A stretch of DNA of 56,188 nt, counting the filler, from Streblomastix strix (Eukaryota), in assembly GCA_008636045.1 (NCBI GenBank). It is 3 parts of 3 records of this genome, joined end to end, with 100 filler letters (N's around TTAATTAATTAA, not from the genome) between each part and the next. Parts side by side here need not be neighbours in the genome. Positions count along the whole stretch, not along the records: positions 37,527 to 56,188 come from SNRW01000591.1; 2 more parts are not named here. The stretch is one strand, 5' to 3'. Position numbers and translations under genes: made by a program. Below the pieces are notes generated by a model. That model was not told the DNA's origin, did no database searches, and saw nothing but the letters and a program-made list of their open reading frames with translations. Each line of letters opens with the position of its first letter. The stretch's first letter is position 1. This document shows positions 25,724-55,100 of the stretch, piece after piece.

Positions 25724-25859
25724 GAAAATTAACCCGTTATTTGAGAATATTTTTTATTTTTTATTTATATATATAACTAACACCTAAACATTAATATAGT
25801 TAATTAATTAGGTCATTAGTTACATGCACATTTATTATTTTTTATTTATTTTATAATAA

Positions 25860-27312: not shown

Positions 27313-27829
27313 AAAACATAATTTTATTTATTTTTGTAGAAATAAAATGGAAAGAATATTGTTCGGCAACAGAAAAAACAATTAATTTACTTCGAAATTA
27401 TAAATAGAAACGGATGAATAGGAAGAAATACCACTCGAGGAGGGGGTCTAAGGTTAGACTAATGGACATAAATATTTTGAGAACTTAAACGATTTCAAAT
27501 AATTTATTTCCTAAAATCAATAATAATTATCTAAACGATCAACGTAAAAAATAAATAAATTATATAAATTGGACGGTTATAAGTTATCAAAAAATAGAAG
27601 GTCAAGTATGTATAAGAACTTGTGTTAAAGATTAATTGAATAGAATTGAGTATAAATTAGACTAGTTTTTTGATGTTCTGAACCATTTGGTTTAAGCGCT
27701 GAAATGAATGACTTTTGACTGGACCGTGTGGATTGGGTGGATTGAGTCAAAAAACTTTTATAAAAGGCTTTGGCCAACTGGACAAATGGCTAATTTATTA
27801 ATGAAAAAAACATTTGCGAAAAAAAAAAG

Positions 27830-28632: not shown

Positions 28633-28638
28633 TTTTAT

Positions 28639-29460
28639 TATATGAGAGTTTCCGATTAGTACCAACCACTCAGTTTTTATTTTAAAAAATTTTTACATGA
28701 TTTAAGACAGTCAAAAGCTGGAGTTGTAAAATCTTCAGAAATGCATCGTAGCGAATTTGTGCAAAAAAAATTTTTTGGTTCGTGAGCCATCGGCAGTTTA
28801 CATATGTTAATGAATTTTATTTAATTTATTTTATTAAAATTTTATATTTAATATTACTAATATTTGTGATATTTTTATGTATTGATGCAAGAAAAAACGA
28901 AGATTTTCTTTATTTTTTATTTTTCACATCATCCAATGTTTAATTTTAGTTTTTTTTGACAATTTATTTAAATAAACAATAAAATACAAATTATAAAATT
29001 CGAATATTATATTTATTTCGACAAAAGTGCTAATGCGCGGAAATGAAAAAATTAAAATCGCGAATTTGCGTCATGCAGATTAAAAATTATCAATTTTGTT
29101 ATACCAAATTTAATTAAAAAATAAAAAACATCAAATTAAATATTAATTAATAAAAATAATAATATGAATGTTTCAAAAAATGGAAAATATAAAAAAAAAT
29201 TTTTTATCCATCGCTGGTGCCTAAAAATATCGTAAATATTAATAATATTTAATAAATAATTTTTATAAAATAAATTTAATAAAATTCAAAAGCATATACA
29301 ACCTGTCGCTGGCTAGCGAACCAAAAAAAAATTTTCGCGCAACTCCGTCATGGTGGATTTTTAAACATTTTACAACTCGAACTTTTTTTAATTTTAAATC
29401 AAGTTATTTTATTTTTAAAAAAAATTGGGGTGGTTGTTTGTGATCGGATACTCCCATATA
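28639..29460. repeat. ~820-bp imperfect palindrome (foldback/MITE-like) between divergent genes
   Basis: TATATGAGAGTTTCCGATTAGTACCAACCAC... pairs with ...GTGGTTGTTTGTGATCGGATACTCCCATATA, and TTTTTGGTTCGTGAGCCATCGGCAG pairs with CTGTCGCTGGCTAGCGAACCAAAAA. Arms are ~300 bp. Confidence 0.8.
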
Positions 29461-29656
29461 AAACTTTTTTTTATCAATAAGAAATAGAATGTTGGAAATT
29501 GATTTCAATGCACTTTAAAAAGAAGCAAGAGAAGAGTTTGAAGCTGAAAAAAGCTAATATGGCTCAGGTGGTGCAGATGGTTAAGGTTTGATGGAAGTTG
29601 ATGGAATGGAAGATGATTATGATTATTATGAATCACAAGCTGCAAGATAGGACAGA

Positions 29657-30589
29657 ATGAAATCACGAGCAAAACCGTTTGGTAGGCTGCCATTCCTTCC
29701 CAGTATGATTCTAAGAACAAAAAAGCATGCAGGCCCACAATTTAGAGAGGAGGCAGGGGATGTCCTTGCTACACTCGTTGTTTATTTGAACAGAGATATA
29801 AAGAAAATTAATAGGTTATCGTCTGCCGTCAGTGCTCAAAAGTATGAAAATGATAAACATTTAGGTAATCAATATAGCGTAGTTGAATGTGATTTAGATA
29901 ATAATGTAGTCACTCCTGATAATGTAGTTAATTTTGATAAGAAAAAGAACGCAATTTATTCAGTCGATGATTATACAACAGCTGTAGGATTTGGCGACCT
30001 AGAACATCAACATAAAAGAAATTGGAAGAAAAAATATTATTCAGATATTAATGATTTAGAACGAGCTACATTGGCAGCAAAATTAAAATAATAAGGAATA
30101 AAAGGTGGCCCTTACATGAAATGGCTATCAATGACTACGCCGCATAAAGAGAGAACGATAAAGCTACATAGTTTCAGAGCATTCACCGTTGAAGCCAAAA
30201 AAATTCATAAACGCTAATGGAGGCGCATAATTGCCAATGGCTACCAAACAACAAATAATGGCATCTGTATGGAATTCAGTATTTATTACTCCAGCTGTAG
30301 AAATATTAGAAAAATAAGACGGAAAAATAGTCATATATAACAGAAGTAATAAAGTAAATATATAATATGGATAATTTGAATATTTACCACTTGCAAAAAG
30401 ATTGTATAAGAAAGAATTGCCTACCGCTATTGCTCAACTATATTCTACTTATGAATAGTTTAATAATAAGATTTGGATAAGCTCTTACGCTCGCTATGTA
30501 AATATTATTGTCAAATTCTAACATAGAGATAATAACGAATAGGTGGTTATGACTTAGCTAAATACAAGTTTGTTTAAAATAATCAATGA
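29657..30589 (+). pseudogene. Hypothetical Polinton gene (frameshifted)
   Basis: The 144-aa ORF in the track extends under TAR=Gln. No family recognised. Confidence 0.5.
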
Positions 30590-30846
30590 TTTCAATAATC
30601 GATTTATATTATTTATTTTTCATTAATAAATTGGTCATTTATCCAGTTGGCCACAGCTATTTATAAAAGTTTTTGACTCAATCCACCCAATCCACACGGT
30701 ACAATCAAAAGTCATTCATTAACAAAGCCATTTCTTCGTGCTAATTTCATAAAATGCATTGAAGCTTTGACTCAATCCAATCAACCCAGTCCAATTTATA
30801 AATCATTATATTTATGTAATTATTTTTTATTTATATTTTTTAATAA

Positions 30847-33800
30847 ATGGCAGATAAATAGTGATAAGACTCATAAAAACGACTCGCACCTCCGATTGTG
30901 CCTCCAATTGTGCCTACTACTCAAGAATTACCAGAGCTATTACCATTAAATTTACCACTTCATCAATCGCCCAGATAAACATAATAATAAATGACTTAAA
31001 TGTAAGAATATATAAGATGGGCGCAAGCACGCGATTATTAGCCAGTGCCATAATAATAAACAGAATAATAATAATAATAGGTTTTAATGTAGGACTATAT
31101 TACGTAAATGTAAGCACGGAATTATTAATTATCGCCTGAATTATAAATGGAACAACGACAATAATAATTGATATAAATGCAGTATTATATAACGTAAATG
31201 CAAGCACGGAATTACTAGCCATCACCTGAATTATCACATGAACTGCAACACGAACAAGGCTAAGCTCACGATGTGCGGAGGGAGGATTATCAATTGGATT
31301 TAAGGCCCAAAAAATTAACTCTAAATGTTATATGAGAATTAATGATTTTATATGACCCTGAAATATAATAGAAAATAAATGGTAATGAATTGAGGTCATA
31401 ATTTTCATAGATTTTTGATAAAATCGGTTTAAATCATGGTAGAAACAATAGAGATATAGTTAGAAATGCTATATTATAATCAGAACCATTTGCAAGACGC
31501 ATCAGATAAGACATTCAATAAGGCCTTCAAAACGAATAAATTATCGGTGATACTTACACTAAATAAGTTATGCAAGAATAGAATAACAAATAGCAAATGA
31601 ACGCTTAAGACGAATATAGCCAACAGCACAATTAATAATGGGAGCAAGTTATGGAAGATTAACGAGTCAGACATGCAAATTTATTAAAAGAAATTAAAGA
31701 ATAAAAAATAAACCTTAAATAAAAATAAAATGAGGATGTGTTTAAAAATGTTAAAGATGAAATAAAATTATTTAACGAAGAAAATGAGGGCAAGATTTTT
31801 AGGCCAATTGATGCTTTTAACGTCCTATAGAGTACGATTACGCTATGTGAGCCACAACTCGAGTAAAAATAAGAATGAAGAATTAATTTTGAGCGAAAAC
31901 ATATGTAAAATTAGCAAGTCAAATATATCCCATTCTATGTTCATACAATCAGCCTTACAAAAAAATATTACAAAAAATGATTTGAAAACGATTGAAGATG
32001 TTGATGCTTACTTATAAAAAAAATATTAACGAGAATAAAAATTCGCATTTAAAATTGCGTTTGATTTTGGAGTAGTTATTGAACGAGTCGATGGTTAAGA
32101 AAATGAATAAAAAATAACGTATAAAAATATTCATCCTCTTAAAGCTAGAACAGAGATGAGATCACCAACAACCATACGCACGCACTTAGATTTAGAAGAT
32201 TATAAAAGGTACATTAGAAATCATATTATTCAAATGTAAGAGAGAACCATTATGGACACCAAGGAGAAAATAATAGGTATATTTTCAATAATGATTCAAG
32301 TGTTTAGGCTTCTATATGCAAGAGCAGATGGTCGAACAATACCTTTATTAAAGAAGCATATTATGAGGCGATAGATTCGATATATTGATCCTGAAATAAA
32401 TAATTAAAATTTTTATTTCTTTCTAGCATATTCATTAATTTCAATACCAGGCATTAAGGCAGATGATTCAATGATTGCAAAGCGTTATAAGGAACATTCA
32501 CGTATTGCAGAAATAAAGTAATTATTTTAAAGAATTTATTGAAAAACAATTGATAATAAATATTAAGGATTTAATTTTCCAACAGAAGCAGATAAATTTA
32601 TTTAGAACGAAAATTTAAATATTAATGTGTTCACCTACGAAAAAAAAACAACGGCAACATCAATGATAAGTGGCAGTTATTATCTATGGAAATAATTTTG
32701 AAGAAACGAATAGAACTAATAAATAAAAAAATTTAATGTTCTTTTAATTAACCCATCTATTGAACAATTAACAGCTCACGTTTTTTATTTAAATGATGTT
32801 TATGCATTAACTGGTTTAAAATATTGTCCTATTTGTGGAGTGCAGGCTTATAAGACCAAATATTCAAATTTATAATCTAAGCTAAAAAGACACATTTATT
32901 AATGTTAAAAAAAATGGAGGAAAGATAGTAAAAAAGTATATTTTGAAAGATTTCCAAGACTTTACGTTCCTCATATATTGAATAATGTTCGCTATAAGTA
33001 TCTTCTGGCACATGGTCGAGAGGATAAATTTAAACCTACTAAATATTATTTAATATATAATATTGAAATCGTTGAAAGAATCGTTAATGAAAAATTCGGT
33101 GATAATTCAAATGAAATCTCAAAACTAGAACCATTATCAATTGCAAGTACAATAAAAATAAAAAAGAAAGTCGTTGAAGTTGATAATGTTGGTTCTGATA
33201 ACGGCTCCGTTTATTACATATATTTTATTTATTTTGATATACGAACCTTTAACTTCATTAAGGTATAGATTAAATAATTGTTTAAGGAAGCCAGAAAAGT
33301 TATTGATTCAAAAAAATATGAAGATGAGACGATACTATAGCATTATGAGGTACCAGTTATTGGCTTCAATTCTTCAAAGTTTGATGTTGCTCTAAATCCT
33401 TAAAAATTTATAAAGCGATGAATGGTAAATAATAAAATATATTGGTTATTGTTCAAACGCTAAATAAATCATTGTTAAACATAACATAACAGGAATCAAA
33501 TTGCGATTCATTGATGCGTTGATTTATTCTACGAAAATGAATTTGAAATAATTCTTAAAAGATTTCTCAACTAAATCAATGTAAAACATTCCAACAAAGT
33601 TAAAGTTTTCATACGAATTCATCAATTACGACAATTACAAAGAAATAATGAATAATCTTTAGCCATTTCCGATTTAAGCGTTTAAAATTACAATTAAAAA
33701 TAAAGAAATAAGTGAAGAGAAGTATTATAATTATTTGGCTGTTGCATAGCAATATTCGAATAGGTGGGATTATATTTGACACTACAACCTTGAAGATACA

Positions 33801-35916
33801 TGATTAATGAATCAGCAATTGGATTACTTAATTGATTTGTTCTTCAGTTATAAAATTGGTATGTTGCAGTTTATGTCGATGTCAGCATGCGCCAATACTA
33901 TCAAATATGCCCTTGCTTATAGCGACTTTAAATTGGATTAAGATTACACGCCAAAAGATGATTATGCATTATTCTTTCTTACATAAAATTATTGGAACAT
34001 TAAACTTTAAATTATTTTGAAAAAAAATGAAATATAGATACAAGCAACAACATCAAAGAATACGATTGTGCGTTCTACAGAAAATTATTTCTATCGACAG
34101 GATGCCATATCTGTAAGGCACGATTCACAAGCAAAATTCCGCCAACATTAGACAGAATTAACAACGACGGAGGTCATTCTGTAGATAAAATAAAAACGTG
34201 CTACTTATTCTGTAATAAATTTAAATAAAATAAAGATGAAAATTTAACCCGTTTAATAATACAATTAAAGAATTTTTTGACTGTTGAAGTCGCTTCTAAT
34301 GATAATAACTGATGAAAAAGTTTATCAAATTTTACGTTCTGGAATGATTGTTGGATTATCGTAAATCATGCATAGATATAGTGTTTCAGGTGAAACTAAA
34401 ATAAATTAATTAAAATATATTTATAGAAAAGTCATCAGTTGCTATGCCCAATATACTATGACCCATCTTTTAATACTTGATTTCAATTGTTAATATCCCA
34501 GCGTTATGAGCTCAGAGCCGCATAAGTTAATTAAATATACAGGAAATAAATTATACATGAAGGGACAAATATTGGATAAAATTACTGAAAAAATAAACTG
34601 CAAGAAATTTAATTTTTAATCCCCTGCGATTTAATGACGTTTGAGGAATGCCGTTATTTATCGCAGTTGTTAAAGGACGTATCGACGAATAACATATTAA
34701 CGATTTCATTAATTTTCTTCCGATATTAAGAAACATTGACATATTGACTGATTAAAAAACATTAAGTTCGTAAATGTATAATCTGCTGCTGAAAAATAAC
34801 ATGTAGCACGACAAAATTTAACGAAAATTAACAAATTTTCCATCGACGCATGGGTAGTTCATGTCGTTCAATAATTATTATTTATGGCTTTTCATTGATG
34901 ATTTTCATTTCATTATTGACGATATTTAATGTGTTATAACGTTCTCGAAGCATGACAGATTCAATCCATTTGTTAAAGAATTTATGAGTCAAAGAATATA
35001 GGCAATAAATGAAAAAAAATGATCGAAAAAATAATTCTATAAATAAGCTATGAACTCAAGCTATGGAATTGATGGGATGAATTAAGAAAAATATTCACAA
35101 ATGAAATTGTTAGGTTCTGATAGGACGTGGTTGTATCATCCCTAAGGTTCATTCATTAATGACCAATAATTAACAAAAGATTTAGTTGCTGTGGTATTTA
35201 ATGCTGAGAGCTGCAACTGCAACACCTGCCTCCATTCTGCTTATTTCGTGCTTGATAATAGCAAATATTGGTATATAAATTTTATCTATAATTTTATAGC
35301 CAAAGCTTTCGATATGAACAAGATGCACTATGTTTGTGGTGACACTGATTCGATGACATGGGCCATCAGCGGCAACCCAGAAGAGGATTACAGACAGAAG
35401 TTTAAATACGTATTCAAAGATTAATAGTTCTTCGATGAAAATTATCCCCTTTTCTTCGGTTAATATAAGCAACTGTTTGGAGTCAGTTATGAAGCAGAAG
35501 GAACAGCATGCATTTCTCTAGCACCAAAAATTCATTACATTTATAATCCCCTACCTAAAGAAAATGAAAAGGATTATAATTATTGTTTGAAAAAAATAAT
35601 TAAAAAATAAATTGTTCAATTGAACAATAAAGCATTCAAAAAATCATTATTGGGAGAATAAATTTATGCTCAAAATATTATCCTTGGTTAAAGAAATAAA
35701 TAATTGTCAAAAATATAAATAAATAAAGTTGGTTTAACATCAATTCATAATAAAATGGTTGTTCTTGAAAATTAATGCTGTGTTCCATTCCTATATATTA
35801 ATGGATAATAACTAAGTTCAGATAATTACATATTCTAGAAAAAATAACAACGAAAATATCAACAAAAACATCAATAAAACATCAACGAAATCTATGAAAT
35901 TGACACGAGAAATTGA
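30847..35916 (+). pseudogene. Protein-primed family B DNA polymerase (pPolB), element 1
   Basis: ExoI YNIEIV, ExoII VPVIGFNSSKFD, motif A LDFNCQYPSVM, motif B YKIAMNSSYG, motif C VCGDTDSM, and LAPK. HNH-like TLDRINNDGGHS insert and a Gln-rich repeated N-terminus. Multiple frameshifts. Confidence 0.9.
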
Positions 35917-37426: not shown

Positions 37427-37526
37427 NNNNNNNNNNNNNNNNNNNNNNNNNNNNNNNNNNNNNNNNNNNNTTAATTAATTAANNNNNNNNNNNNNNNNNN
37501 NNNNNNNNNNNNNNNNNNNNNNNNNN
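37427..37526. other. Artificial contig-concatenation linker
   Basis: 100-nt N run with central TTAATTAATTAA. Confidence 0.95.
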
Positions 37527-37626
37527 CAGTTATCCTTCTATAATAATAAATCCAAACTATTACCTTCCTAAACAATAATAAAGCCAAACTGTTACCTTCC
37601 TACAAAATAATAAAGCCAAACTATTA
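37527..37626 (+). repeat. ~33-bp tandem repeat (about 3 units) flanking the transposon
   Basis: AATAATAAA(G/T)CCAAACT(A/G)TTACCTTCCTA is repeated. Confidence 0.75.
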
Positions 37627-38120
37627 CAGTGGGAATAAATCAAACTTTCATACGAATAAATCAAAGTTTCAATCGAATAAATCAAAGTTTCATAGTTGCA
37701 CTTTTTTCAAAATTAAGAAAACTCACTTATATAATGTTATTAAACATCATATTACTATAACTTTTCAACTCAGGCATGTTCTCAAAATTTTCTTGGGTGA
37801 GGCGGTAAATCGACATTTAATGTATTTATAGAATATTAGAAATGTGGAATAATCAATATGATAAACAATTAAAGTTACAAAGATATAATTTATATTTAAA
37901 TATGATTCCATAATAAAAATTAAAAAATTTCTATGATTCATGAAGATATTCAACATTTAAATTTTCGAGTCCCTTAATACCAACATTTTTTTCAAAAAAA
38001 AATTATTTATCATAAATCGAATAAAAACATAAATGTTCAATTATATTTATTTATTTATATACTCTTTAAATAAAAATTTCTCTTTAAATGCAGTTCGTAG
38101 TAGAAATATTAAAATTAATT
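37627..38120 (+). repeat. Left terminal inverted repeat (~495 bp) with three subterminal GAATAAATCAAA(C/G)TTTC direct repeats
   Basis: Near-identical reverse complement of 43845-44338. It explains the twin 63-aa ORFs in the track. Confidence 0.93.
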
Positions 38121-38547
38121 TTAATTGATTTTTAATACTAGGTAAATGATCTAATAACTGTTTATTCATTGTTTTATATATTTTTATGCATTAAAATTAT
38201 TTTTTAAATAATATATAATCAATAAATTGAATTTTTAATAATTCAAAACTCGTTGATTTAAATTTCAATGAAAAATTCATTTTATTCCTTGACTTGGATA
38301 CCAATATTAATATATATTTTTTCAAACAAACAAATAAATTATTTTGTAATTAATTTTAATTAATTTGTTAATATTTATGTTATTGATTTTGATAAATGTT
38401 ATCTTATTAACTATTACAGTTTTCCTAGAATATTCTGTTTATTTCAATATTTTAATTAAAAATTAACAATTATTTATTTTGTTTAATACCATACAATTAT
38501 ATTATTATAACAAAATTATCATTATTAATAATTTATATTTATTTTAG

Positions 38548-39893
38548 GAGGGTTTTCTTTTGAGAATGAAAACAGACCAATTATCGCCATATCATTTGAT
38601 ATTATTGCAGCAATTGGTGTTGAAAAGAAATCTCAATTATTTATTGACTTTAAAACTAAACAAAGTAGTGTGTTGGTATATTCTAATATTATTTCTGTTT
38701 AATTCATTATTAGTATTTATTTCTTAAAAAATTATTAAACTGAATAGAGATGAACTTGTTTCAACGAAAATATATGTTTCTCCAACTGTACTCAATGATG
38801 GAGATGCTGCTGATGTATTATGAATATATATTATTCATCTATAATATTATATATTATATCAATTTATATTTTATATTATTTAATTTATTAAATTATATCA
38901 ATTATTATATTATAGTCTTTCAACCTTAAAGTTTAAAGACTTACAAAGATCATTTCATTAACGATCTCAGATGTTGCGCGTTTTGCTGATATGAATATTC
39001 TTGCTCCAAGGTATGAGCTATGATGATGAAGAAGAAATTTTATTATTCTATTTGTTTTCTATATACATACTTTATAATTATATAATTATATATATTAGAG
39101 GTCATCACGACATTGAGAAGGGTAAAGAAGTATTTGCTTTAAGAGGAAAGTTATATGACTACAAAATTATATATAAGACTACTACACATCTCACTTAATA
39201 CCAAAAGCATAAGGAAGTTTATTCTATGTGGTATTATATAATTAAATATACATTTATTAATATTAATTAAAAAAATATTACTTAAAGAAATAATTTAATT
39301 TTATTAATTATTTTACTCTCTTTTATTTTATTAATCAGCGTAAATCAATGATTTAGAAGGATGTTGAAGTAGTGGATGGTGACGACAGTGGATAAGATAA
39401 AAGTAAAAGGTATAAGTTTATTTTTATTTTATAAATCTGAAGAATAATTTTATTATTATATCAATATATGTAATTTAGACCAAGAAGAGAAAAAGCATAA
39501 TTAGCAGCAATGATTATTGCAAGAGAAGAAAGAGAAAGATACGCATGTATATCATTATTATTTTATAATAATTATTATGTTTAAAATTATATATTATATT
39601 AATTATATTATATATAAGAAGAAGAAAATTATAAAGAAGAAGGAGATGATGATTTTGTGGATGAAAGGGCAGATAAGATTGATAAAGGAAATGGTATCAG
39701 AAAGAAGAGAAAGTTGAGTGAAATATAGAATAAGAAGAAAAAAAATGAAGATGAAAGCTAAGATGAAAATAAGAAATCAATATTTGAAGAGGATGAAGAT
39801 TCAGAAGAAAGAGAGAAAGAAATAGAATTAAAATATGCAGAGGATGAGATCGATGAATAGTAGGATGAATTTGCTCAATTAAAAGAAGCTTGA
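38548..39893 (+). CDS. SSRP1/Pob3 (FACT small subunit)-derived multi-exon cargo gene with acidic/basic tail; 5' end unresolved
   Basis: Exons read FSFENENRPIIAISFD...KSQLFIDF, DELVSTKIYVSP, and VARFADMNILAPR|GHHDIEKGKEVFALRGKLYDYKIIY. These parallel Pob3/SSRP1 RPAFEIP...DELVEMRFY.P...FQDV..LTPRGRYDID...LRGKTYEYK. A D/E/K-rich tail follows. Confidence 0.7.
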
Positions 39894-40856
39894 GATGAAT
39901 ATAGTGAAAATAAATAGAAAGGAAGAGAAAGGATGAAGAAGGCTAAGTCTATTTTGAAGGATGATAGTAATGATGCTGAGTCAATCTATAATTCTCATTA
40001 ATTTTATGTAATTTTGAGGTAATTGATCTATTGAATAAGTTTTATTTTATATTATGTATAATATGTTAATAAATAAATCACATAATCATTACAATTTAAA
40101 ATTTTTCAGTGTTTTTTTTGATAGAAAAAGATATATAATAGCTTTTTACAACAAATAGTCAATTATTAACATTTTTGCGATATAATTTTATATCAAATGG
40201 GCTAATTATAATTATTTTCTTTGTTATATTTATAAAAAACCAAACAATTATGTTGAATGCATTTTATTGTCAAATTCACGTTTTTCACTTCTAAACGAAA
40301 CTATTATATTTATTAAACAATCATTTTTTATAGAAACATTTTATATAAATGTAACTTTATAACGAATGATAGCAAATTATTCTTTATTATATCACAAATC
40401 ATGCAACAAATATAATCTTGATATTTTTTATGAAGAAATAGTATAATATTTATTATTTTTTTGTATATTGCAACAATTTATTGATATATATCATTTATTA
40501 TCAAAAATTCTCAATATTGTTTTAACGATGAAAAATACATAAAAATGTTTAATATAATCATAGATATAACTTTCTATTATTTATTTATATGTTTTTATTA
40601 TTTTAAGTTAGATTTCTTATTATTTGCAACATTGTTTTCTTCACAATACAAGAGTGGATCTTTCAATACGGCATGAAATTTTTTTTCTGTATCCTTTTTC
40701 CATTTTAAACTTAGATTTTTTGTTTATTTTTTATTTATGAGTTCATTATAATAAAGTAAAATATAAGAATTGATGATATTAACTCTATTAAACTAAACAG
40801 AAATAAAATAATACTTTAATACAATTAATAAAATCAAAATTAAATATCACAATCAC

Positions 40857-43815
40857 TCATTCTTAACTCTTCATTGACCAAAAATGATTATTATTAATCA
40901 TTGCTAAATGTAAGGCTTGTTAATCATCATAGATATCTCCATTTATAACTAATTTTAACTGATTCTAGGATCATAAATAACAATTTATCTCTGCAGCTTA
41001 GATGAAAGGGCCCATGCCTCTCTTTCACTTGCATAAGCTCCATTCTTTGAATTTTTCAAGATATACTTTGCTCTCGCTTCTGGTGTAATGAAATCTGGTA
41101 AATACGTATCAGGATAGCCTTACATTTCAAGAACCATTAATTTGCGCAATTGAGTTGGTGATTTGTCTTATTTAATATCAGCAATAGCACTGGGAATAAT
41201 ATATTATAATATATTTATTAAAAATATTTTAATTATTATTTAATATTTATAAATATAGTAATATATGCACAAACTTATATAAACAGTTACCATCACCCTT
41301 AATATCTTTGTTAAGAAACAAACCAAGACTTTCAGCAATTGCTTCGAGAACTTATTCATCCTTGTTTATTTTTTAAATATTTATTTTTTTTTAAATTTAA
41401 AAGATATAATATAATATATTATTATTATTTAATATTATTTTATACATACATCTTCTTCATTAATTCTCTTTGGACCTATATCATTCATTATTATATCTAC
41501 TCTTTCTAATTCTTCTCTATTATTAATTAAATATTCTATTTTTCTTTTACTATTATCCTTATTTTTTTACTCATCTTGTTCCTTTTATGGTATATTATCA
41601 TTTTCCTCACTTTCATATGATTTTCTTCTTCTTTTTCGATTATTTTATTTTTCTCTTCTTTTATTATAATTTTAATCATCATTACTCTATATTGATTCAC
41701 TATCACTTTCCATATGACTTTTTTCAGATCCATCAAACAATTCATTACTATTTATTGATTGTTTTGTGTCATCATCTTCACTTGTTTCACTATTTACTTT
41801 CCTTTTCTATTTCTTTTTCTTCAATTTTGCTTATTTCTTTTTCTTTAATTTTGCTTATTTCTTTTTCTTTTTAACTGATTTATTATTTTTTGACATATAA
41901 TTCTTTTTAACTTAATTAGTATTTGCTCTTTTTTACTATGATCTTTTTCTTTTCTTTTTACCAACTTCAATAATTTCTTTATCTTTAATCAATTAATTAT
42001 TATTATTAGAAGCTTATTCATTACCTAGAGAATCATCTTTTTATTTTGATTATTCATGATCTTAACTATCATCGTTTGATGAATCATTAGAAATATCACA
42101 GTTAGTATCTTCATTTTCCTCTACTAAACCAGCATTTTATTCGATTTCATTATCAAATCCATCTATGAACACAATCATATTTCCAATGTCGTCCAAGTCA
42201 CCGGTATATGAATCAATTATTCTTTTTACATGTGTGATGGCAGATTAGTTTGATAGGTTTAACTTTCTTTCTGCAAGAGGATGAACAAATGTCTCTACAG
42301 AATTTATACTTGATGATACTTCTTGTTAAGTTACAGTACGAAATGCTTCGTCTAAGAAGGGAATAACGGTAGATGATGAAGATACATCTGGAGGAAGATG
42401 GACACGTCTTTTGAAGAAACCAAACACAAGCTCTATGGGATTTAATTCGCAATTGAATAGTGGAGTATGCATGATTCTAGCTTTTGCATTTTTGCAGAGT
42501 TTTTCCACTTCTTCTGTTTTATGTATCGGTGCATTATCCATTACGAAAATCATATTTATTATATTCAGGATAACTATTTGCTTTAACAGTGATGTAAGAA
42601 AGATGCAGAATGTCTTTGAATCAACTCCACCTTCTACAAAAGTACATTAGATGACTCCAAATCGTGAACAAATAGCTGAAATACATGAAAGATGTTGGAT
42701 CTATCTACATTTTCTTTTCATAATGCATCGCTTACCTATAGGTGCCCTTCCTCTTGATCTTAGTTACGTGAGATTGAATCCTGTTTCATCGATGAAGATG
42801 AAATCCACCCCATAAACCTTTGAAAGCCGATAAGACTTAATAAACAGAACTCTTTGATCCATTATTTCGGGTGAATTTCGTGAGTATTCATGCGTTTCGA
42901 TCTTTTTCATTGAATATAGGGGAAAATTATTCTTCTTCATTCCTTCACGTAGGTGTTAATTAACAGATGATGCATGAATTTTTAGTTCAAACTTATCTAA
43001 TATTTTATCAGCCAATTACTAACCAGTAATATCAACTTCTTTAGTAATTTCTTCTGTAATGAATTTACTTATAAAAGGATTTATCTTATAATGTGCTCTT
43101 CCTCCTCTTTTTTTCTTTTATCCTTATCTATTAATTACATTTCTTATTGTTTTTGTACATACTTTAAATCCTTTAGCTAACTCTTCTATTATATGTTTAT
43201 TTTATTCATTTTCTTCCTTTTCTTCATTCTATTTAAATAAGGCACATATATTTATTTCTTATTCATTTGTTAATTCAACACTTGCCTTCCTTTCAGTTCC
43301 ATCTTTCTTTAATTTTATTATCTTCACTTTAACTTTTTTTCTTCTTCCTCTAACTTTTTGAATTGCAATCTGCATAATTGCTTATTGTTCGATCTCTGCA
43401 ATGTGTTCAAGAGGAGGAGGGTGGATAATTGGAATCTCAGCTTCTTATAGTCTTTCTTTTAGTAATTACTCTAACTACTAGTCAGAAGATTCTAAGTTTG
43501 TGCGGATAAATTCTGATTGTAGTTTCTCCGCTAAAAATCAGAAATAAAAAGAATGAAAATTAAAATTACAATATTTGTTTAAATTCAATATATATATAAT
43601 AAATATTTTGTTAAATAAATGTAATTAATATAATCTTTTTATTTTTTTTAAAATGAATGATAATATTAATATTTTAATGGAATAATTAAAAACTATTTGA
43701 AATTGTTAAATTCAAAGAAACTTAAATTAAAATAAAAAATTTGATATAAATTTATGTTTATTATCTTAATTTATAATTAAAATAAAATTCACATTATTTG
43801 ATTCATCTTACCCAT
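40857..43815 (-). CDS. DD34E transposase fused in frame to a C-terminal OTU-family cysteine protease domain
   Basis: Probable microexon ATG G|GTAAGA, then a long exon (43530 to ~41450) without TGA. It contains an HTH region, FIFIDETGFN, FVMDNAPIH-(34 aa from D to E)-LNPIE and a K/D/E/S linker. Two introns then join IKGDGNCLY|NAIAD...GAYASEREAWALS...LHLAMINNNHFWSMKSQE-TGA. Confidence 0.88.
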
Positions 43816-43844
43816 GAAGAATGAAATGATTCAAAACCTTAAAC

Positions 43845-44338
43845 AATTAATTTAAATATTTCTACTATGAATGACACTTAAAGAGAAATTTTTATTTAAA
43901 GAGCATATAAATAAATAAATGTAATTGAACATTTATATTTTTATTCGATTTATGCTAAATAATTTTTTTTTGAAAAAAATGTTGGCGTTATGGGACTCGA
44001 AAATTTAAATGTTGAATATCTTCATGAGTTATAGAAATTTTTTAAATTTTATTATGGAATCATATTTAAATATAAATTATATCTTTGTAACTTTAATTGT
44101 TTATCGTATTGATTATTCCACATTTCTAATATTCTATAAATACATTAAATGTCGATTTACCGCCTCACCCAAGAAAATTTTGAGAACATGCCTGAGTTGA
44201 AAAGTTATAGTAATATGATGTTTAATAACATTTTATAAGTGAGTTTTCTTAATTTTGAAAAAAGTGCAACTGTGAAACTTTGATTTATTCGATTGAAACT
44301 TTGATTTATTCCTACGAAAGTTTGATTTATTCCCACTG
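43845..44338 (-). repeat. Right terminal inverted repeat (~495 bp)
   Basis: Reverse complement of 37627-38120; followed by TA. Confidence 0.93.
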
Positions 44339-45990
44339 TAATGAATTATAGAATTTTTTCTTATCCATGATAATTAATTATCTTGAATGTAGAACTAAAG
44401 TATGAGGATATTTTATTTTATAATTCTCTGCTCCAATAGTAGTTTGAATTTTCTATTTTGAATCTTACGTAAGTAGTGATGTAAAAAGAAGGCTGCTCTC
44501 GAATCAAAAACTTTAAAAAATTATTCGGAGTGTAAATTATTATCTTTTAATTATATTGACGAATTATAAGAGATATTTTATAGGATTGTTATATAATTAT
44601 TTAATAAAATTATTCATATTGATAATTCTTTTTAGTTGTTTATGATTAAATTTCATACTTCATAATAATTGTTTACTGTTTTTGAATAAGTTTACTAATG
44701 TAAAGTAATTGAGATGAGCAATCAGAACAGATATTTTGATGGGTTGCTTTGCGGATTAATGAATAGGAATTATTGTATAGGTAAGCTTTGTGATTTTACG
44801 ATTCTCAGGCAGCCTTCATTTTACATCACTATTCATAGTTCAAATCTGATGATTTGAGCGATGCATTCTTACTCGTAATGATTAAAAGGACTAGGTCGAA
44901 TCAATTTTTTACTAGTGAAAATGAAACAATTGTATCGACTAGTTATAGGATGAATGAAATGGATTATTTGTTAAAATTGACGGTGATGAACAGTTACAGA
45001 ATTGATTATAAACTTCATTTTTGGATTCTACGTATGTGATATGACCTTAGAGTAGTGCATCAGAGAGATATGAAATTTTAACTTTTTAATGGGAATTCTG
45101 ATCTATGAAAAAATATTTTTATTTTTAATATATAGGCTAATAAAAAAGTGAAAAATATAAGGAAAAATAAATGTTTTCTGATTGACTTGAAAATAAGTAT
45201 GTGGGTCAATATTGATATGTTGATCACGAATTTGATGTTAGAAGTGGACATTGCAATTGTTGCTTAAGGTGAATTCTTGAGATTGATCATATCGATTAGA
45301 ATCGTGGATGAATTAAATGAATTGACTATGTCTATTGAACACTCTGATGATAATGTTTGGAATCATGGATAAATTGAATGAAATGATCAGATGTGCCAGT
45401 GCGCCGAGTTGGACCCCCTAAAATTGACCCCTTTAGCGAAAGTCAGTCGGTTGGTTGGTCGGTTGATAAATGAAATATGTCAGCCAAATGAAATTTAGGA
45501 CAGAAATTTTGTCCCATTAATGTATGAATATGCTTGCGATGTGGATAAATGAAGAGAATTATCCATTAGGACAAAAGGACGGGACGGGACAAAAATTTTT
45601 GAGTCCGAGGAAAACTGGTGACATATCGACATATTGACATATTTAAGAATTAGTTAGATAAGATTAGAATTATGGAGAAATTGAATGAATTATCAATGTG
45701 TCTATGGTTTATAAATGTAATTAATAAGGTGTGTCAGTGGAGTTGAGAAATTTATTAAATTATCCATATGTCCATGGTGTCTATGGTGGCTAGGGTTATA
45801 AATTGCCATAAAAACTATTACCATATTTACCAGATTTGCCATATCATTAGAAATGAAGTTAAATTTGAAGGATTGTGGAAGGATTATTGAAGAAAGATAT
45901 TTCCATTAGCTGACATCATTGCCATAAAAATATAATCTGATTAGAAACTTATTTTTAGCAAATCAATTTGACTTTTTATCTTTAAAGTAA

Positions 45991-48807
45991 ATGGCAACAG
46001 TAATGACATAAGATAACGGAGTAGAATATTTCGAATCAACTGAAGTTAAACTAATCGCATCAAACATTAAATATGAAACACTCGAAAAAGGTCCAACGCG
46101 TAAATATAATCGTAAATCGAAAACCAATGACAAAGCAAAAGCATTGATTGATTAAATGATTAAATAACAAACTATTAAATAACTTACAGAATAATCTATT
46201 GAATAATCTATTGAATAACCTATTGAATAACCTATTGAATAAACCATATCTGATTTAATAAATTCTGAAGGATGAATTGAAACAAGACTTGAAAATTAGC
46301 AAGCGGCATATAGAATATAGCAGTAGTCGGAAAGATCAGAATAAGAATAATTAGATAAAGCTTCAATAGACAAAGTCTTAGCTGTATTAGACCCTATCGT
46401 TGAAAAATAACTATCTGATATATAAACTAAAACTATTAGCGTAAGAGTAAAAAATGCAATGATTAATGCAGTAAATTACACTAAAGTTTGTTAATAAGTA
46501 GGTAAGAAAGCATAGGTAACTGGAAAGATAATTGATTTATCGTTAATGGATGATGATGAATTATGTGTGATTGATTTTGATATTAATAAGAAACAATCAA
46601 TTGAGGAAATTGATAGAATTCACTAGAATCTAATCAATAATGTGCTTCCACCAAATGTAGGTCTAGTTAAAACAGCACATGGAGGACTTCATATCTATTG
46701 CAATAGAAATGGTTATAAATTACCTTCAAATCGATGTGTTAAAGTTATAACTGGAGATAATTTTGATGTTGATATTTTCGCTCAAATGACTAAGTTTAAA
46801 GTAGACGATAAAGGTAAAGAAACTGATGAAATTGTATAAAATAGAATAGTTGTACCAAACACTTCAATTCAAGAAATGAAAAATAATTAACAAGTATAAC
46901 TTAAATATGAAGCAATTAATGATTGGGCTAACATGACACATTTTGCAAATCTATGAGACATATTGGATAAATGGAATGTTGATATTGAGATGTCATAAGC
47001 TGAATATGAAAAATAAAGAATTGAATGAATATATAATTAATAAATCAACGATGATGGAACTGTTGATTCAATGCCTAATGATTTTGCACATGCATGTATC
47101 GATGGATTGATGAATATAACAATTCATAACTATCCTTAAGCAATTAATATGGAAGTCTCTCTTCTAAGTATATTTTCAGGATTATATGGAATTAATAATG
47201 AATCAATTAGAGCTGAAGGAGTAAATAACATACGTAAATTTAATATGTTAACTGTAAACGCTGAAAAGAACTATGGATAAGCTGCTTCTAATGGTGAACG
47301 TAAACCTAACACATGGATTCTTGTAAAAATTCTTGGATATCATAACAAAGATTATTATGAATAAATAATCCAACCATTACATAAGAAAAATTATGAGTTA
47401 AAGAAATAGTAAAAAGTAACAAATGTATTAAAGTCAATAGAGAAGTGTGAAATTGATTTAAAAGATCCATTCACATTAAAGAATATTCTTGATAAAGCAT
47501 CTAATGGAGAATACGCTAACATAATAGAGCTAGTTGCATAAGATTTATAGAAGATATTGAAAGTTGCACCTTGTTAGAATGGATCATGCTATATAGTTAA
47601 AGAATACGATTGTATTAATGATACTAATGATATTCATTATAAAAATAAGTAAGCTATATATTATTAGTTAAGAGCACTTAGACTTTGGTAAGATGGAAAA
47701 AAGAATATAACTGTTTTTGATGCTTTCGAGTAATTTTAATCATTGTTCTATAAAATTAGAATAAAGTTCATTAGTTAAAATCCATTAATTTTCAATGTAT
47801 TTCAAGGATATAAATATAAATAAGTTGATGAGATCGACTAATCAAAAATAGAATAATTCTTAGGATTAATAAAAGACACCATCTCAGCAAATGATGATAA
47901 GGTTTATGAATATTTATTGAATTGGTTCGCTTATATTGTATAGAATACAGGTAAGAAAACTGAAACAGCAGTTATACTTCAAGGGTTATAATGAATAGGC
48001 AAGAATGTTTATACTAACGTTTTGTTCGAATTATTAGCAGGATATTCAGCTAAGAATATTACTTATATAGATGAATTTGTATGTAATTTTAATTCAGTTA
48101 TCGAAAATAAGATGCGTGCAGTACCTAATGAATTGAAAAATTGTGGCGAGTAGAGAACGTCAAATATGGATGCAATGAAGTCAATAATAACTGAAGGATC
48201 ATTCAGAATCAATGAAAAATATGTACCTAAACATGAAGCTGAAAATGTAGTTAATTTAATAATTGTAACTAACAACCTGTTTCCAATTAAAATAGAGAGT
48301 AGTGATAGACGTTATGTTGTATGTAAATGCAGTCCAGTTCATAGAGGAGATTTAGAATATTTCACTAATTTATGTGATAACTTCGATACTGATTACTATG
48401 ATAACTTGTTCACTTTTTATATGACTAGAGATATTAGCTCATTCAATCCAAGAGATATTCCAATGACAGAAACAAAGAAAGATATTATAAGAGCTTCAAG
48501 ATCACCAGTTGATGATGTAATTATTAAACATTTCAAAGCTTTATTAGAAGGTGCAACTACACCAGTAGCTGAAGCATGGAAACCAACTGAAAAGAAGCTA
48601 AAAAATTATGAGATAGCGATTAAAAACACATATAAAAAAGTTAAAAAATAAACTAATGGTGTTCGTTAATACGTGTATCAATTAAAAGAGAAAATGGTAT
48701 CAATTTATCAGAATATGCTTGATGATGAGGAAGATGAAGAGATTAAAGATTTGGAATAAGAGAAAATTAATGATAGAATTGAATATGCAGATAATAAGAA
48801 AGAATGA
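45991..48807 (+). pseudogene. Prim-Pol + SF3 (D5-like) primase-helicase
   Basis: LCVIDFDI and VKTAHGGLHIYC (Prim-Pol). KTETAVILQGLQ*IGKN (Walker A), MDAMKSIITE, NLIIVTNN and SSDRRYVV (SF3). Several in-frame TGAs. Confidence 0.85.
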
Positions 48808-49111
48808 AGAATGATTTATTTTTGCTTTATTTTTTGCTTTGATTGATACATTAGAATAAAGTGTCCATGGTTGAAAAATGCAAGTAATAAGATGTGCTAG
48901 CGCTGTGGATGAATTGATTGAATTATCGATGTGTCTATGGTGACCATGGTGGCTAGGGTTATAGATTGCCATAAAAACTATTACCATATTTACCATATTT
49001 TCCTTATCAATAGAAATGAAGTTAAATTTGAAGGATTGTAGAAGGGTTATTGAGGAAAAGTATTTCCATTAGCTGACATGATTGCTATAAAAACATTTCT
49101 ATTTACAACAA

Positions 49112-49432
49112 ATGCGATCAACTAAGATAGTTTACGATAATCCGTTTGATGGACGTTCTTAACGTGAATAATATCTAGAGTATAGTAATCAACTTATAGA
49201 CTAAATCATTAAAAAGCATGAAGATAAATTTATCAAAGGAATGACATTTCTATAAGTAATGAATTTATAGCCCAGAGATATGTAATTTAATGAGTTTCAT
49301 ACATTAATGTATAATAGATTATAGGTGATGAATTATACTAAAAATGGAAAATTAGCTGCTAAATAAAGATAATAATTGAAGATAAATCCTCCAATTAATC
49401 TTGTGGATAATTAAATAACGAATAAAGAATGA
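49112..49432 (+). CDS. Small hypothetical Polinton protein
   Basis: MRSTKIVYDNPFDGRSQREQYLEYSNQLIDQIIKKHEDKFIKGMTF..., open under TAR=Gln and preceded by repeat family B. Confidence 0.45.
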
Positions 49433-50229
49433 TTAATTTTTGAAAAGATGTCAATGGCAAATATGGTAAATATGATAAGTGTTTTTATGGCAATTTATAA
49501 CCCTAGCCACCATGGACACCATGGACACATGGAGAAATTATGTAGAATCTATAGCTCAGAAAGCTAACTGATAGATAATGTTTAAAATAACCATGGACAC
49601 CATAGATATATTGATAGTTGACATCAATTTGACACAACTATTTTACATTAGAACTAACACATGGAGCTAATAGGCAAAAATAAATCAATCTCTTTGATTG
49701 TTCTATTGATTATTTGATTGATTGCTTGGTGAACTGTTCTACTGATTGTTTGATTAGCAGTACCGATCAATTATCTAGCTAATTTAAAGTAAATCCTATA
49801 CGTCATATATGATGGTTTTCTATAAACGTCGAATCAATAGGAGTTATAAATCGTTAGCAAATGTTCGAAATTCCTATCGCTGAATTCTATATTTTTATTG
49901 TGCGCGTTGACGTTATTAGGTGGCTATCCGTTCGGCTTCTTCTAGTGAACTATATTTTTTAGGTCTACCTCTTAGTTCTATTTTCTCTTGATCTAATTAT
50001 GTCAATGAAATAGGATTAATTGATTAATCATTTATAGATGCATTCATTAAGGAAGCATCGATTTAAGGTGCATTAATTAAATGAGAATCAATCGTAGAAA
50101 CATGAAGCACTTCATCAAATGGACTGGATTATGATTCATTTAATTATGGAATTGGTTTCTTTGATTACCTTTTACGTATTTGTTTTGTGTCACTTGCTTG
50201 CATTTGATTTAAAAATAAAAATCTCAATT

Positions 50230-52092
50230 ACTTATATTAAATTAACTTTTATAGTTTGCTGGCAATGAATTGATGTCATCACTAATAAATTTACAATAAT
50301 ATATAGGTTGTTCAACCACATCAATTCTTTAGAACGGATTCAATAATTTACATACAACATTACCGTTTTTATAAGTTAGTAATGTTGTTAATTCATTGAA
50401 CTAACGCCTTTACTTCTGGAACCTTATATTAGTCCTAGCATAATCTGCATGAATCATCAATATATTTCCACTCATGAAATTGAATAAATTTTCCAGTTAT
50501 TGATTCAAAATTTTCTGTTCCGTTTATGCTTATTTTTATCTTATGAATTTACCTTCTAAATCCCTATTCAACTATATCTATTGAGGTGTGAATTTATTAT
50601 GATATGATAGATGTGGTGTTTTGTTATATATATTAACCATCAATTACATCTTACTAGGAGTAGCAAATCCTAATAAATCTTAACCAAACCCATTTCTTAT
50701 CGTACGGATAACACTATCAACTATTATATTCTGTTACGTGAAACTTGAAGATGCGAAGAATAATGAGATATTGGTATCATTACAAAATTCTTTAAAAATA
50801 TTAGCTTTAAAACAAGTCTCACCATCCCCTCTTATATTGTTAACATATATCTATTTTATGAGCTTCTATAATGCAAGTTTAATCTATGCAGCACTCCTAT
50901 TAATCATTGATATCACAACTAGATATTTTGTATTAATATTGATCGCAAATAAGTATTACTAATTTCTTCGTGTTATTGGATTTGTACCGAATACAAGATC
51001 AATTTCCCAAGATCCAAATTTTGGTTAGAAGTATGGACGTTAGAGCCTATTTAATGGTTTCATTTTAATATCTTTGATTTATGTTTATTTCGTTATTCTT
51101 TCATTATTAATTTTTTCATATTATTTAACTTTTGATTTGAATGGAAATATCGTTATTTATTATTGATTCGTTTATGGTTATAAATTTACATAAGGTAATC
51201 TTCTTATTGTTTTTGCAAGCTTTAATGGAGCATTATATTATTATGCTTCAGTTATATATATTTAATTCCATTCACTTATACTTTTTCCACTTAATTATAT
51301 ATCATCAGCTTTATTAATTAATATATCTTATTCTGGTCTACTCGGAGTAATTTTCATATTTGAAATAAACTATGGAAATTTCATTATTCCTCCATTACTT
51401 GATCTTGCCAAATGTGTGAGTTAATTCTACATATTAATTGCTGCTTCACTAATCTACTGGTCGGTTTGATCATAATTTTATAGCAATAATTCATATACTC
51501 TATCTTACTGAGCTTATGTAAGGTGATCTCTATTCATTTTATCTTCAAAAATAATCTTATACTTCACCTGCAAAGTTTCGATTCGCAGGCATATTTAATT
51601 CCTGCTTCATAGATAATTTTCCAGATACTTTTCCAATTAATTCCCAATGAATCTAATGTTTCGAAAGAAAGTGTAATATTTGCTGCTAAATTTTCAGTTA
51701 ATGGTATGAATAATGTTTCGAATGGCATTTCATTAGCCAAAAACAAATCAATCACTCATCAATCTTCTCGACTATCTATTCTAATTCGTCTTTATAATTA
51801 TTTCTTGCTTCATCGTAATCAATTAATATATTATGTAATCTATTCTATTAACTGTTTTCAACATTCAAAATCAGTATCTCCTTCTTTAATTTTTATTTTA
51901 ATAATTATTGCATTGATTTATCTTGTTTTTATATACCCTTTTTTGCATCTAATTGATCTGCACATTAATTTAACTGATCAATAATTTGTTATAATTACAT
52001 AGATAATTTGAATAATTCCTTAGTCTATTTCATTTATGAAGTGTATTAATTAAGTTTATCAGCTACTTCTTTGTATTTCTCTTGTTTGTCCA
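50230..52092 (-). pseudogene. Retroviral-type (rve) integrase, element 2
   Basis: RPYFQPKFGSWEIDLVFG...YLFAININTKYLVV...NNIRGDGETCF...IVDSVIRTIRNGF...IYNKTPH; paralogous to 36071-37426. Frameshifted; 3' end approximate. Confidence 0.85.
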
Positions 52093-52117
52093 TTTTGATC
52101 AAACAAAAATAAATTAA

Positions 52118-55100
52118 TCACTATTTCATATAATATCTGTCTGCTTTAATCCCATGTATGAATGGTAAACAACTTTGATTAGATAATACTATTATTTTCG
52201 TCATCGACCCATTTATTGCATTTTTCTCCATTTTCAACCTGCCCATAGTCCCCTTATGTTATGCTAACGTCATATTAATAGCCGTTGTAACAGTACCATT
52301 GTTAATACAATTCACGAATGTCTGTTCATTGATCTAAGGATTCTAATCCAAAATTACTCCTTTTAAAACAATCTCAATATTAATTATGTAATTTTTAGGT
52401 GATATAGCAATATAATTATATCCATATTTTTTGACACCTAAATGCAATATCTATTTCTTCCCATTATCTGTATATACACAATCTTTGTACCTATCATAGA
52501 ACTATTAGTCTTTGATGACTGCTTCGAACAGTTACTCAGGACCACGATTTGAATCACCGCTAATCGCCCAAGTGAGACTATCAGTATCACACTAAATGAA
52601 GTGCATTCTATTCATGTCGTATGCATTGTACATAAAGTTATATATGAAATTAACGTACCAAAACTTAGCTGAGTCTAATACGAAATAAGTTACTTATAAA
52701 CATGTATTACAGTGACAATTCTCTTTATCCAATTACTCGGCGTACAAATCATCGCTCAATTCTGTAGAATTAATGAATCCTGACATCATATGCTATAGAA
52801 ACGTTCATTTAGACGATAGCAATTTAGTATTCGAGTACTTCTCTGAATTCAAACAATCACCACCAAAAGCAGAATTCAATATTATTTTTGTAAATTATGA
52901 TAGTCCATCATTATGATCATCTTTCGCTTGCTATCTTATACTAATAAATTCCTTAACAAATGAATTGAAATTAGTATGTTTCGTAAATTTTGTAACACTA
53001 ACGATTTCGTCTATTAAGAAGTGAAAACTGTCTATTAATAACCAAAGATAATAATTATTAAAACTCATTACTTAATTCGTTGTATCAACTAGATTGGTCA
53101 ATTTTCGTTCAACAGAATCATGAGGAAGATTATGCTCGACTAGATGATGGTACATAAATTCACCGATAGTTTCCTTATTAGTCTTTATATCAATGTTTCT
53201 TAATATTTGTGCTCAATTGATCACCTCATTTAAATAGTCTTCATCGATATGACCTTTCACTTCTGCAACAGACAGATACATCTAACTGACAACTAGCTTA
53301 TCACTACTAAATCTATTAGCATCATAAATCAATTATATATATTTATTTTTTTCAGTAATCTTTTCAAATAATTGTGCTGGCATATATATTGTATTACAAG
53401 TGTATGGATTTAACGCGTTTGGTTCGCCACTCATTACTGATGGATATTAGCTATGGAAATCTAACTAAACTACATGCGTTTAAGCATAATCTGAATCGAT
53501 AGAGTATACGCACTTATTCTCCTTATCGTACTCGAAATGATTGATTCTAGTTTCATTCGCAATATTATATCGATGCATCACATTTGATAAACCACCCATT
53601 ATTCCTTTATGCAATAACTAATATACTTCATCACTTGTTAGTGTCATGGGTAATTATTTAAATAACGCATACTTCTTTAGTTGTATCAGTAATTTCATTT
53701 AGTTTTCATCACGATTTGCTTTATAGGTATTACAGTACAAGCAACATGGAATAACATTGTATTTTGAATGGCCTAACTTATTATTTTTCCTATCAAGTGT
53801 AGGACGATTCTTCCAAGTGAATCTTGCATTACAAATATGACAACGTTAGTTCTTGAATATATGTTTAAAATAATAATAATCGTCAATTGAAACATTGTTG
53901 CTGGAATCTCTACCTTTTTTACTATCTTATTCGATATAGCTTTCAACTTTCGATTTCCAATAACATTACCTTATATCTATGGACTTATCAGTTGATTCAT
54001 AATTGTAGTTACCATTAATATCGAAACCATTATAACACATAGCATATTTAATAGCATTTGCGAATTAAGCCATTGAGATACTAGTTAACATATCAACCTT
54101 ATATTTGAACATCAGATTAATCAAAAAATCAATTGGTTCGATTAATATTCTAGTATCTAATATATTATAATGCTTCAAGTAATCTTATCGTGTTTTGAAC
54201 TTTGCGGCTTCGACCAGATACTCCTTGTACTTTGATTCAGTTAGTATCTTATTTCTTAATTAATTATCAAAGGCATTAATCTGAAATGGTTCACTTTTAT
54301 TTAATTCTTCCATGTAATTATTAGTATTTATGAACTCGTGTGGTAATTTGCCTTTTTTATTTATTCCTCCAAAATCTCGAACGCAATCTTTCAATCGATT
54401 ATGTGTAGTATAAATCTTAAAATCAACGAATCTTAATCAAAAAACAAATTACTTATGTTTCATAACTATCTGTTTTGCTATTGATGTTGTGCCTAAATAC
54501 TTCGAGATAGTCCAATCTTTAGACTTCAGATTCTTAAATACAAGTGATGTATCAAATTTTGCAGAATTGAACCCAGTTTCCGGCACTTCAAAATATTATG
54601 GTATTGTTTCATCTTTGTATTTATTATCTTTCTTAACTTGTTTAGCTTCTCCGAATATCTAATCGAGCCATTTTTCTAAAAAATAGTCTGTACGAATATC
54701 GTAATAGAATGAATGTATACCGCTAGCAGATTTGACAGTTGATGCGATAGCATATGGAACTATCGTTGCAATAACTAATGAACTATCACCGAATTTTTCA
54801 TTAACTTTCTTCTCTAATGTTTCAATATCATATGTAATTTAGTATTATGTAGGCTTGAACAAATGAGTTAGATTGTTCGCTTATAGATACTTGTAAGTCT
54901 TTTTAGATAATATATGAGGAACAAACAGTTTAGCAAATCTCTCAAGATTGACCTTTTTAACTATTTTTCCACCGTAAATTTAACATTTTTTCATATGATT
55001 TCTCATTAATACTTATAGATTTGGATCCTTGATTCTGAACGCTTATCTGTGACATATATTACAATAACGGAATCCAGTTAATACTTCTACGTCAGATATG

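Follow-up and report, generated by a model that had tools for sequence, protein, structure and literature searches.

A decayed Tc1/IS630-type transposon of Streblomastix strix with a transposase-OTU fusion and an SSRP1/Pob3-like gene

Elements of the IS630/Tc1/mariner (ITm) superfamily generally move by cut-and-paste at TA dinucleotides. An earlier, sequence-only reading of the DNA studied here took Tc1/mariner elements to be usually single-gene. This holds with exceptions: Tec elements are described with terminal inverted repeats (TIRs) of ~700 bp and three open reading frames (ORFs), and TBE elements also with three ORFs (PMC7325037). OTU domains have been reported on DNA transposons of another type, Ginger1, where a role in ubiquitin-linked repair was put forward without test (PMC2836005). 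Here we describe an element located at positions 37627-44338 of the window (the whole stretch of DNA analysed, 56,188 nucleotides of Streblomastix strix, assembly GCA_008636045.1), in its last contig (SNRW01000591.1). The element encloses two convergent genes, one coding for a DD34E transposase fused to an OTU domain and one related to SSRP1/Pob3. The combination was not known to that reading from earlier descriptions. In the literature searched (titles and abstracts, outside Repbase, Dfam and subscription journals) we found neither a Tc1-OTU fusion nor a transposon-borne SSRP1; the occurrence of OTU on a DNA transposon, on the other hand, is not new.

The reading that we favour, with evenly balanced confidence, is that of a DD34E transposon of Tc1/IS630 type, multi-copy and here decayed, with a transposase whose C-terminal OTU domain is likely to aid transposition; the element would have taken up a complete host SSRP1/Pob3 gene and multiplied it as a passenger. 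The transposase would bind the 21-bp subterminal repeats, excise the element and insert it at TA, while its OTU domain would remove ubiquitin either from the transposase or from chromatin or repair proteins near the break. An intron-containing SSRP1 gene would have entered as DNA after the split of two transposase families (A and B, see below), come to lie beside the left TIR, been copied with the element and then decayed. The copy in the window is a relic in which both genes are damaged: the convergent, spliced layout read earlier stands, and the damage had not been noted.

The transposase gene has four exons separated by introns of 281, 89 and 85 nt, all GT-AG (Table 1). It is written in genetic code 6, as had been proposed: of the 45 Gln codons of its main exon (693 codons), 35 are TAA or TAG, and TGA is not found there. 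S. strix, an oxymonad of the termite gut, is described as translating TAA/TAG into Gln (PMC10120064). This exon is 100% identical to the S. strix protein P0001 over residues 90-460. The catalytic triad consists of D249, D333 and E368 (34 residues separate D333 from E368), and the OTU cysteine is Cys721. Single exons match the Pfam profiles DDE_3 (4e-24), HTH_32 (1e-3) and OTU (1e-4), which bears out the fusion on the minus strand; the NCBIfam IS630 profile gives 98.6 bits with the main exon, for a cut-off of 100. With the DD34E triad in DDE_3, an N-terminal helix-turn-helix (HTH) and TIRs, the element belongs to ITm. It is not of the Pack type, where cargo takes the place of the transposase, since a transposase frame of 820 codons is present before the first stop.

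The OTU domain is not restricted to this copy. A second S. strix transposase family (family B, P0002-P0004) is identical to that of the element (family A) at 89 of 144 positions of the DDE core (62%). In a tree built from 21 of the 39 matches, without named reference transposases, those of S. strix form a single clade (support 99/99). Over the OTU region, 52 of 136 residues are identical between family A, with an X placed at its frame break, and family B (P0002), and both the Cys and His motifs are retained. P0002 and P0003 score above the Pfam OTU cut-off (1e-6 and 1e-5, respectively) and keep Cys and His in frame; P0004 carries half of the domain, including the Cys motif, and P0001 gives a weak OTU match. 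The Atlas model of P0002 residues 660-808 resembles OTU fold clusters (TM 0.77-0.83), and yeast OTU1 is matched with an E value of 0.01. A single-sequence fold of the P0002 domain was poor (pLDDT 49.5) and was not used, and a PDB search with the OTU exon of the element returned designed proteins only. Outside Streblomastix, none of 35 matches (proteins of 382-1218 aa searched) has a precomputed OTU domain, and the 17 with an extractable core have just 38-70 residues after it. Because family B also keeps an OTU domain with its Cys and His, the fusion is, as judged from these alignments, older than the split of the two families. The domain has probably been kept by selection, since the motifs survive while the linker has diverged, and it is likely to be a deubiquitinase aiding transposition.

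Seven exon blocks on the plus strand, between 38548 and ~40026, match SSRP1/Pob3. The identity assigned earlier is upheld by the Pfam profiles PH1_SSRP1-like (2e-9) and SSrecog (0.03) and by the solved human SSRP1 structure (1.3e-6). This copy does not contain a complete open gene. No ATG is evident, and two blocks that other copies possess, an N-terminal piece and PH3b-PH4, are absent. P0042 and P0044 read through the frameshift near 39193, where one contig of the sequencing run X1 has an extra base. The TGA at 39891, which model P0040 uses as its stop, stands where P0044 reads Gly and is a probable premature stop. We also considered whether the left TIR holds, at its inner end, a decayed mirrored counterpart of the start exon of the transposase with its donor (38121-38175 against 43780-43844); this was rejected as not above chance, the similarity being reached in 166 of 2000 shuffles and 29 of 206 controls. 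The start of P0048 would fit such a mirrored exon.

Nine S. strix SSRP1-like models (P0040-P0046, P0048 and P0052) are 56-100% identical to this copy and none is whole. The 24 matches of a full-library search comprise 8 family members (56-94%) and 16 others (27-38%), and do not include a further S. strix SSRP1-like clade of intermediate identity. Taken together, the copies cover SSrecog, PH3, an Rtt106-like domain and an acidic tail, as well as a piece at the N-terminus; SSrecog, the double-PH middle domain and the acidic tail are found in this order only when the copies are combined. Individual Pfam matches are SSrecog in P0045 (9e-5), PH (7e-19) and Rtt106-like (0.016) in P0044, and Rtt106-like in P0052 (0.0025). 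P0042, P0043 and P0048 share an upstream piece that aligns loosely to the SSRP1 N-terminus, has no Pfam match and lies outside the stretches matched by hidden Markov models. P0043, located on another contig with another flank, opens with peptides read from the TIR, so that TIR and SSRP1-like gene adjoin at a second locus. The gene was probably once near full length in the element family. Its damaged forms are not private to the window: the frameshifted reading is common to P0041 and the jump to the tail to P0041 and P0042. Deleted or frameshifted versions were themselves amplified. As these sub-lineages still multiplied, an intact gene was apparently not needed in cis, and their multiplication, the lack of any intact copy and the lack of a family-B partner together favour passive spread.

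The pattern of variation among the copies points in the same direction. Departures from the family majority number 21 among the 173 cells of SSRP1-conserved columns and 42 among the 306 cells of the others (p=0.67; 90 aligned columns, with conservation taken from 14 canonical rows that are matches to this query, and gene-model junk excluded by hand-set segments). Seven of nine listed exon variants are non-synonymous (40 of the 393 differences being listed). On these counts the variation is read as neutral decay. A one-off passive capture had been named as what would speak against a functional role; the neutral part of this agrees with the data, the one-off part does not, the family being multi-copy with nine models.

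Several observations weigh against the favoured reading. With regard to the OTU domain, the catalytic His lies, in this copy, in a different frame from the Cys, after ~40958, and an X1 contig ~88% alike (36 differences in 306) shows no gap across this frame break among the differences listed. An assembly error was considered there and is unlikely, given that this diverged contig has equal length, and the frame break seems to be common to both. The His would return to frame through a micro-intron (GT-AG, 11 nt) or through programmed frameshifting; no canonical slippery site was found at the break, and 11 nt is, to our knowledge, shorter than any intron. In both sequences GT and AG stand 11 nt apart at this site, and the His frame is open and conserved.

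With regard to the SSRP1-like gene, neutral drift among copies is not decisive, because the family-B transposase copies drift likewise (19/567 against 14/564, p=0.48). Such drift would be expected for any trans-acting transposon gene and does not show passivity. For the same question the ratio of non-synonymous to synonymous substitutions (dN/dS) across copies would not decide, because the informative branch is the one leading from the host gene to the family ancestor. On that side the family majority retains 18 of 35 strongly conserved SSRP1 columns. A rough composite, built of decayed and incomplete pieces, matches 14 canonical proteins at ~1e-25; the best matches of two other oxymonad SSRP1s, obtained with another database, are given as 5e-59 and 9e-51 (PMC10703272 supplement). 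This copy averages 31% identity to the canonical rows and canonical pairs average 45%. The low conservation fits an old, diverged gene of the element, or else a divergent host gene followed by decay. Moreover, full-length gene capture by Pack-MULEs and Helitrons is called exceptionally rare (PMC6431247), and the family spans most of SSRP1.

These points lend some weight to a different reading, in our view possible but the less probable one, in which selection kept the SSRP1-like gene as an accessory of the element. Transcribed from the left TIR towards the interior, the gene would yield a protein that associates with host Spt16 or binds histones and so loosens nucleosomes at TIRs or targets, while OTU would strip ubiquitin; the present copies would be dead remnants. 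The near full-length SSRP1 of the family, the rarity claimed for whole-gene capture, the compact convergent layout with the TIR-gene junction repeated in P0043, and a domain order retained despite divergence from canonical SSRP1 are all consistent with it. Precedents exist: FACT stimulates the integrase of avian sarcoma/leukosis virus (PMC8149907), Pgm requires Spt16-1 in Paramecium (PMC7402521), and transposon-borne TET/JBP and VANC are reported. Against an accessory role stand the absence of any intact model among the nine, the lack of excess conservation among copies, the amplification of truncated lineages and a start exon mirrored in the left TIR that is not significant. POB3-1 knock-down, at a level that was not measured, is likewise reported to give no phenotype in Paramecium (PMC7402521). 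No SSRP1-like partner was found for the family-B transposases, a weak negative as their contigs are only 3.0-5.4 kb long. We accordingly regard as tentative the broader proposal that a Tc1-type transposon encoded a FACT subunit of its own together with a deubiquitinase, as a two-gene kit selected for working in chromatin. Of the two-part chromatin system suggested by the sequence-only reading, the OTU half holds as a feature of the lineage, present in two families; the joint toolkit is less probable, the SSRP1-like models seen being all partial or degenerate and their variation neutral.

Other copies are known from protein records and from the contigs of X1, where 1392 records align to 37527-41360 (99 at 99% identity or more, 207 at 95-99%, 701 at 90-95% and 385 below 90%). 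This count includes satellite and low-complexity matches, depth is no copy number, X1 is possibly the window's own sample and strain variation may contribute. Both ends of the element, at 37627 and 44338, read CAGT inward and are flanked by TA as noted earlier, and the TIRs, previously put at ~495 bp, are 494 bp long; they align from base 3 over 492 bp at 95.7%, and a separate inverted-repeat search extends the pairing to 514 nt at 95%. Each contains three copies of the 21-bp subterminal repeat. The TIR pattern had no match in JGI metagenomes or GTDB, and scans of metagenome, viral and GTDB contigs with the transposase and the SSRP1-like sequence, as pattern scans that reach close relatives only, were likewise negative. 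The left flank (37542-37627) is a 32-bp tandem repeat with an X1 depth far above that of the element. It is a probable major satellite, in or beside which the left end would lie. The right flank is not satellite and does not continue the left one, and no empty site was seen. As the flanks differ in this way, the two TAs possibly come from different insertion sites and are at most a candidate target-site duplication.

The same flanks would fit an improbable origin of the two-gene layout, peculiar to this locus, by the joining of an SSRP1-carrying non-autonomous derivative to a transposase copy through repeat recombination, amplification or assembly chimerism. Besides the abundant satellite on the left side only, the TIRs differ by 4.3%, the element starts 100 bp from the contig end, no other family-A transposase model was found (in the 382-1218 aa range) and the S. 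strix draft derives from whole-genome-amplified DNA with an N50 of ~5 kb (PMC8767320). Among the X1 contigs listed there is also no convincing bridge between the two genes, which are seen together only in this copy. Such a join is nevertheless opposed by the X1 depth, which covers 30 of 30 bins of 37527-41360 without break from the TIR through SSRP1 and the spacer to the OTU exons. Diverged contigs lie over TIR, introns and exons as well as in the spacer (40315-40558) and the OTU exon. A 1492-nt OTU-exon contig is, more weakly, linked to 40715-40742 and to an SSRP1 exon ending at 39403 (equal summed depth of 82.6, sides of 28 letters only).

Domestication, with a family member serving as the functional SSRP1 of the S. 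strix host or having taken its place, is highly improbable. A published orthogroup lists one SSRP1 per preaxostylan, that of S. strix being weak (best match 4.5e-24; PMC10703272 supplements). Accession numbering and score (7e-19 here) indicate that this member is probably P0044. Domestication would agree with this weak sole member and with the non-family matches: 15 of the 16 were looked up and none bears an oxymonad name, though several are unnamed. P0044, in contrast, has lost invariant residues and agrees with the family majority at just 44 of 63 columns, and with an assembly 69.6% complete by BUSCO a normal gene may simply be missing. The true host SSRP1 gene may also be missing from the S. 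strix annotation.

Table 1 Coordinates of the features of the element and its flanking dinucleotides in the window
Feature	Position	Strand	Remarks
Left TA dinucleotide (target site)	37625..37626	.	From sequence
Left TIR, CAGT end	37627..38120	+	Three 21-bp subterminal repeats at 37633-37694
SSRP1-like exon, SSrecog/PH2 part	38548..38670	+	Pfam SSrecog 0.018; donor placed within 38664-38675; start exon not evident upstream
SSRP1-like exon, end of PH2	38748..38814	+	Acceptor 38748 or 38750
SSRP1-like exon, start of middle domain	38916..39010	+	
SSRP1-like exon, first half of PH3	39099..39230	+	Pfam PH1_SSRP1-like 2.8e-5; frameshift ~39193; rest of PH3 and PH4 absent after it
Two short SSRP1-like exons leading into the tail (39339-39409, 39479-39546)	39339..39546	+	Model P0040, copy P0052
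Acidic/basic C-terminal tail exon	39619..40026	+	TGA at 39891-39893, coding-like sequence beyond
Transposase exon 4, OTU core	40857..41189	-	Frame break ~40958; His codon 40886 out of frame; in-frame stop 40900
Transposase exon 3, OTU Cys motif	41275..41360	-	Cys codon 41285
Transposase exon 2, HTH region, DD34E core, long charged linker	41450..43530	-	Triad codons 42790, 42538, 42433
Transposase exon 1 (ATG and one base)	43812..43815	-	30 bp inside the right TIR end; start agrees with model P0001
Right TIR, CAGT end	43845..44338	-	
Right TA dinucleotide	44339..44340	.	From sequence

The Tc1-OTU fusion adds another transposon superfamily to those with a recruited OTU domain and strengthens the proposal that deubiquitination helps transposition; P0002 provides a naturally intact OTU domain of the element lineage. 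Had selection maintained the SSRP1-like gene, a cut-and-paste element would itself have supplied part of a chaperone that the host lends to a retroviral integrase, and the nucleosome barrier to transposition would become directly testable. A two-gene kit would then represent, by the literature searched, the first transposon-borne SSRP1/Pob3. If its spread was passive, the locus would still document the uptake of an entire gene by a Tc1 element, which is unusual, and would caution that what is annotated as SSRP1 in S. strix may belong to a transposon.

The element has neighbours of other kinds. Its contig carries broken Polinton-like genes at 46276-55408, with matches to DUF5906 (2.6e-12, 47995-48804) and to the integrase profile rve (9e-4, 50227-51606), together with pieces without Pfam match that we take, from their motifs, to be polymerase-B-like. 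Inverted repeats lie at 45756-45842 and 49454-49540 on the same contig. The previous contig contains a cluster of fragmented virus-like genes (24004-35916), including KilA-N (1.7e-16, 26365-27309) and, judged by eye, ATPase-like and polymerase-like pieces. The contigs of the window are unrelated and are joined by N-flanked artificial linkers (18664-18763 and 37427-37526), so that genes on either side of a linker are not true neighbours. Among the SSRP1 matches, P0047 from Diabrotica is unusual in that the SSRP1 middle domain is repeated three times ahead of C2H2 zinc fingers; it is unrelated to the element locus.

Compared with the SSRP1/Pob3 subunit of FACT, the SSRP1-like family matches SSrecog, PH3, the Rtt106-like domain and the acidic tail across its copies and, like yeast Pob3, shows no HMG match. 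It is ~27-31% identical to canonical SSRP1, 17 of the 35 strongly conserved columns are changed, and the gene is broken in this copy. DNA transposons with a second gene include MuDR (mudrA/mudrB), VANDAL (VANC) and the fungal TET/JBP transposons. The two genes of MuDR are convergent and TIR-driven. For VANC and TET/JBP the second gene is described as linked to chromatin or silencing, as would be the case here; these belong to other superfamilies and encode other proteins, and the function of VANC is reported to have been tested experimentally whereas the SSRP1-like gene is known from sequence alone. Pack-MULEs resemble the element in that host gene DNA with introns lies between TIRs and has been amplified while decaying. 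However, they are described as devoid of transposase and as carrying gene fragments, whereas the element has a transposase and its family cargo spans most of a gene.

Ginger1 is similar in having a DDE transposase with a C-terminal OTU (or Ulp1) domain, introns and a length of several kb (PMC2836005), and OTU-bearing Helentrons provide further transposon OTUs (PMC6431247). The element is not a Ginger1: Ginger1 is described with a Gypsy-type integrase and CCGG/CCGT-specific target-site duplications, while the element has an IS630/Tc1-type DDE_3 core and TA flanks, and we infer that its OTU domain was acquired independently. Also close are the Tec/TBE elements of ciliates and other ITm DD34E elements, which share the DD34E triad, HTH and DDE_3 domains, TIRs and TA flanks and, in Tec, also long TIRs and extra ORFs. 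Those extra ORFs of Tec/TBE code for a recombinase, a zinc-finger protein and unknowns (PMC7325037). To this common ITm plan the element adds a C-terminal OTU domain, three introns and an SSRP1-derived gene.

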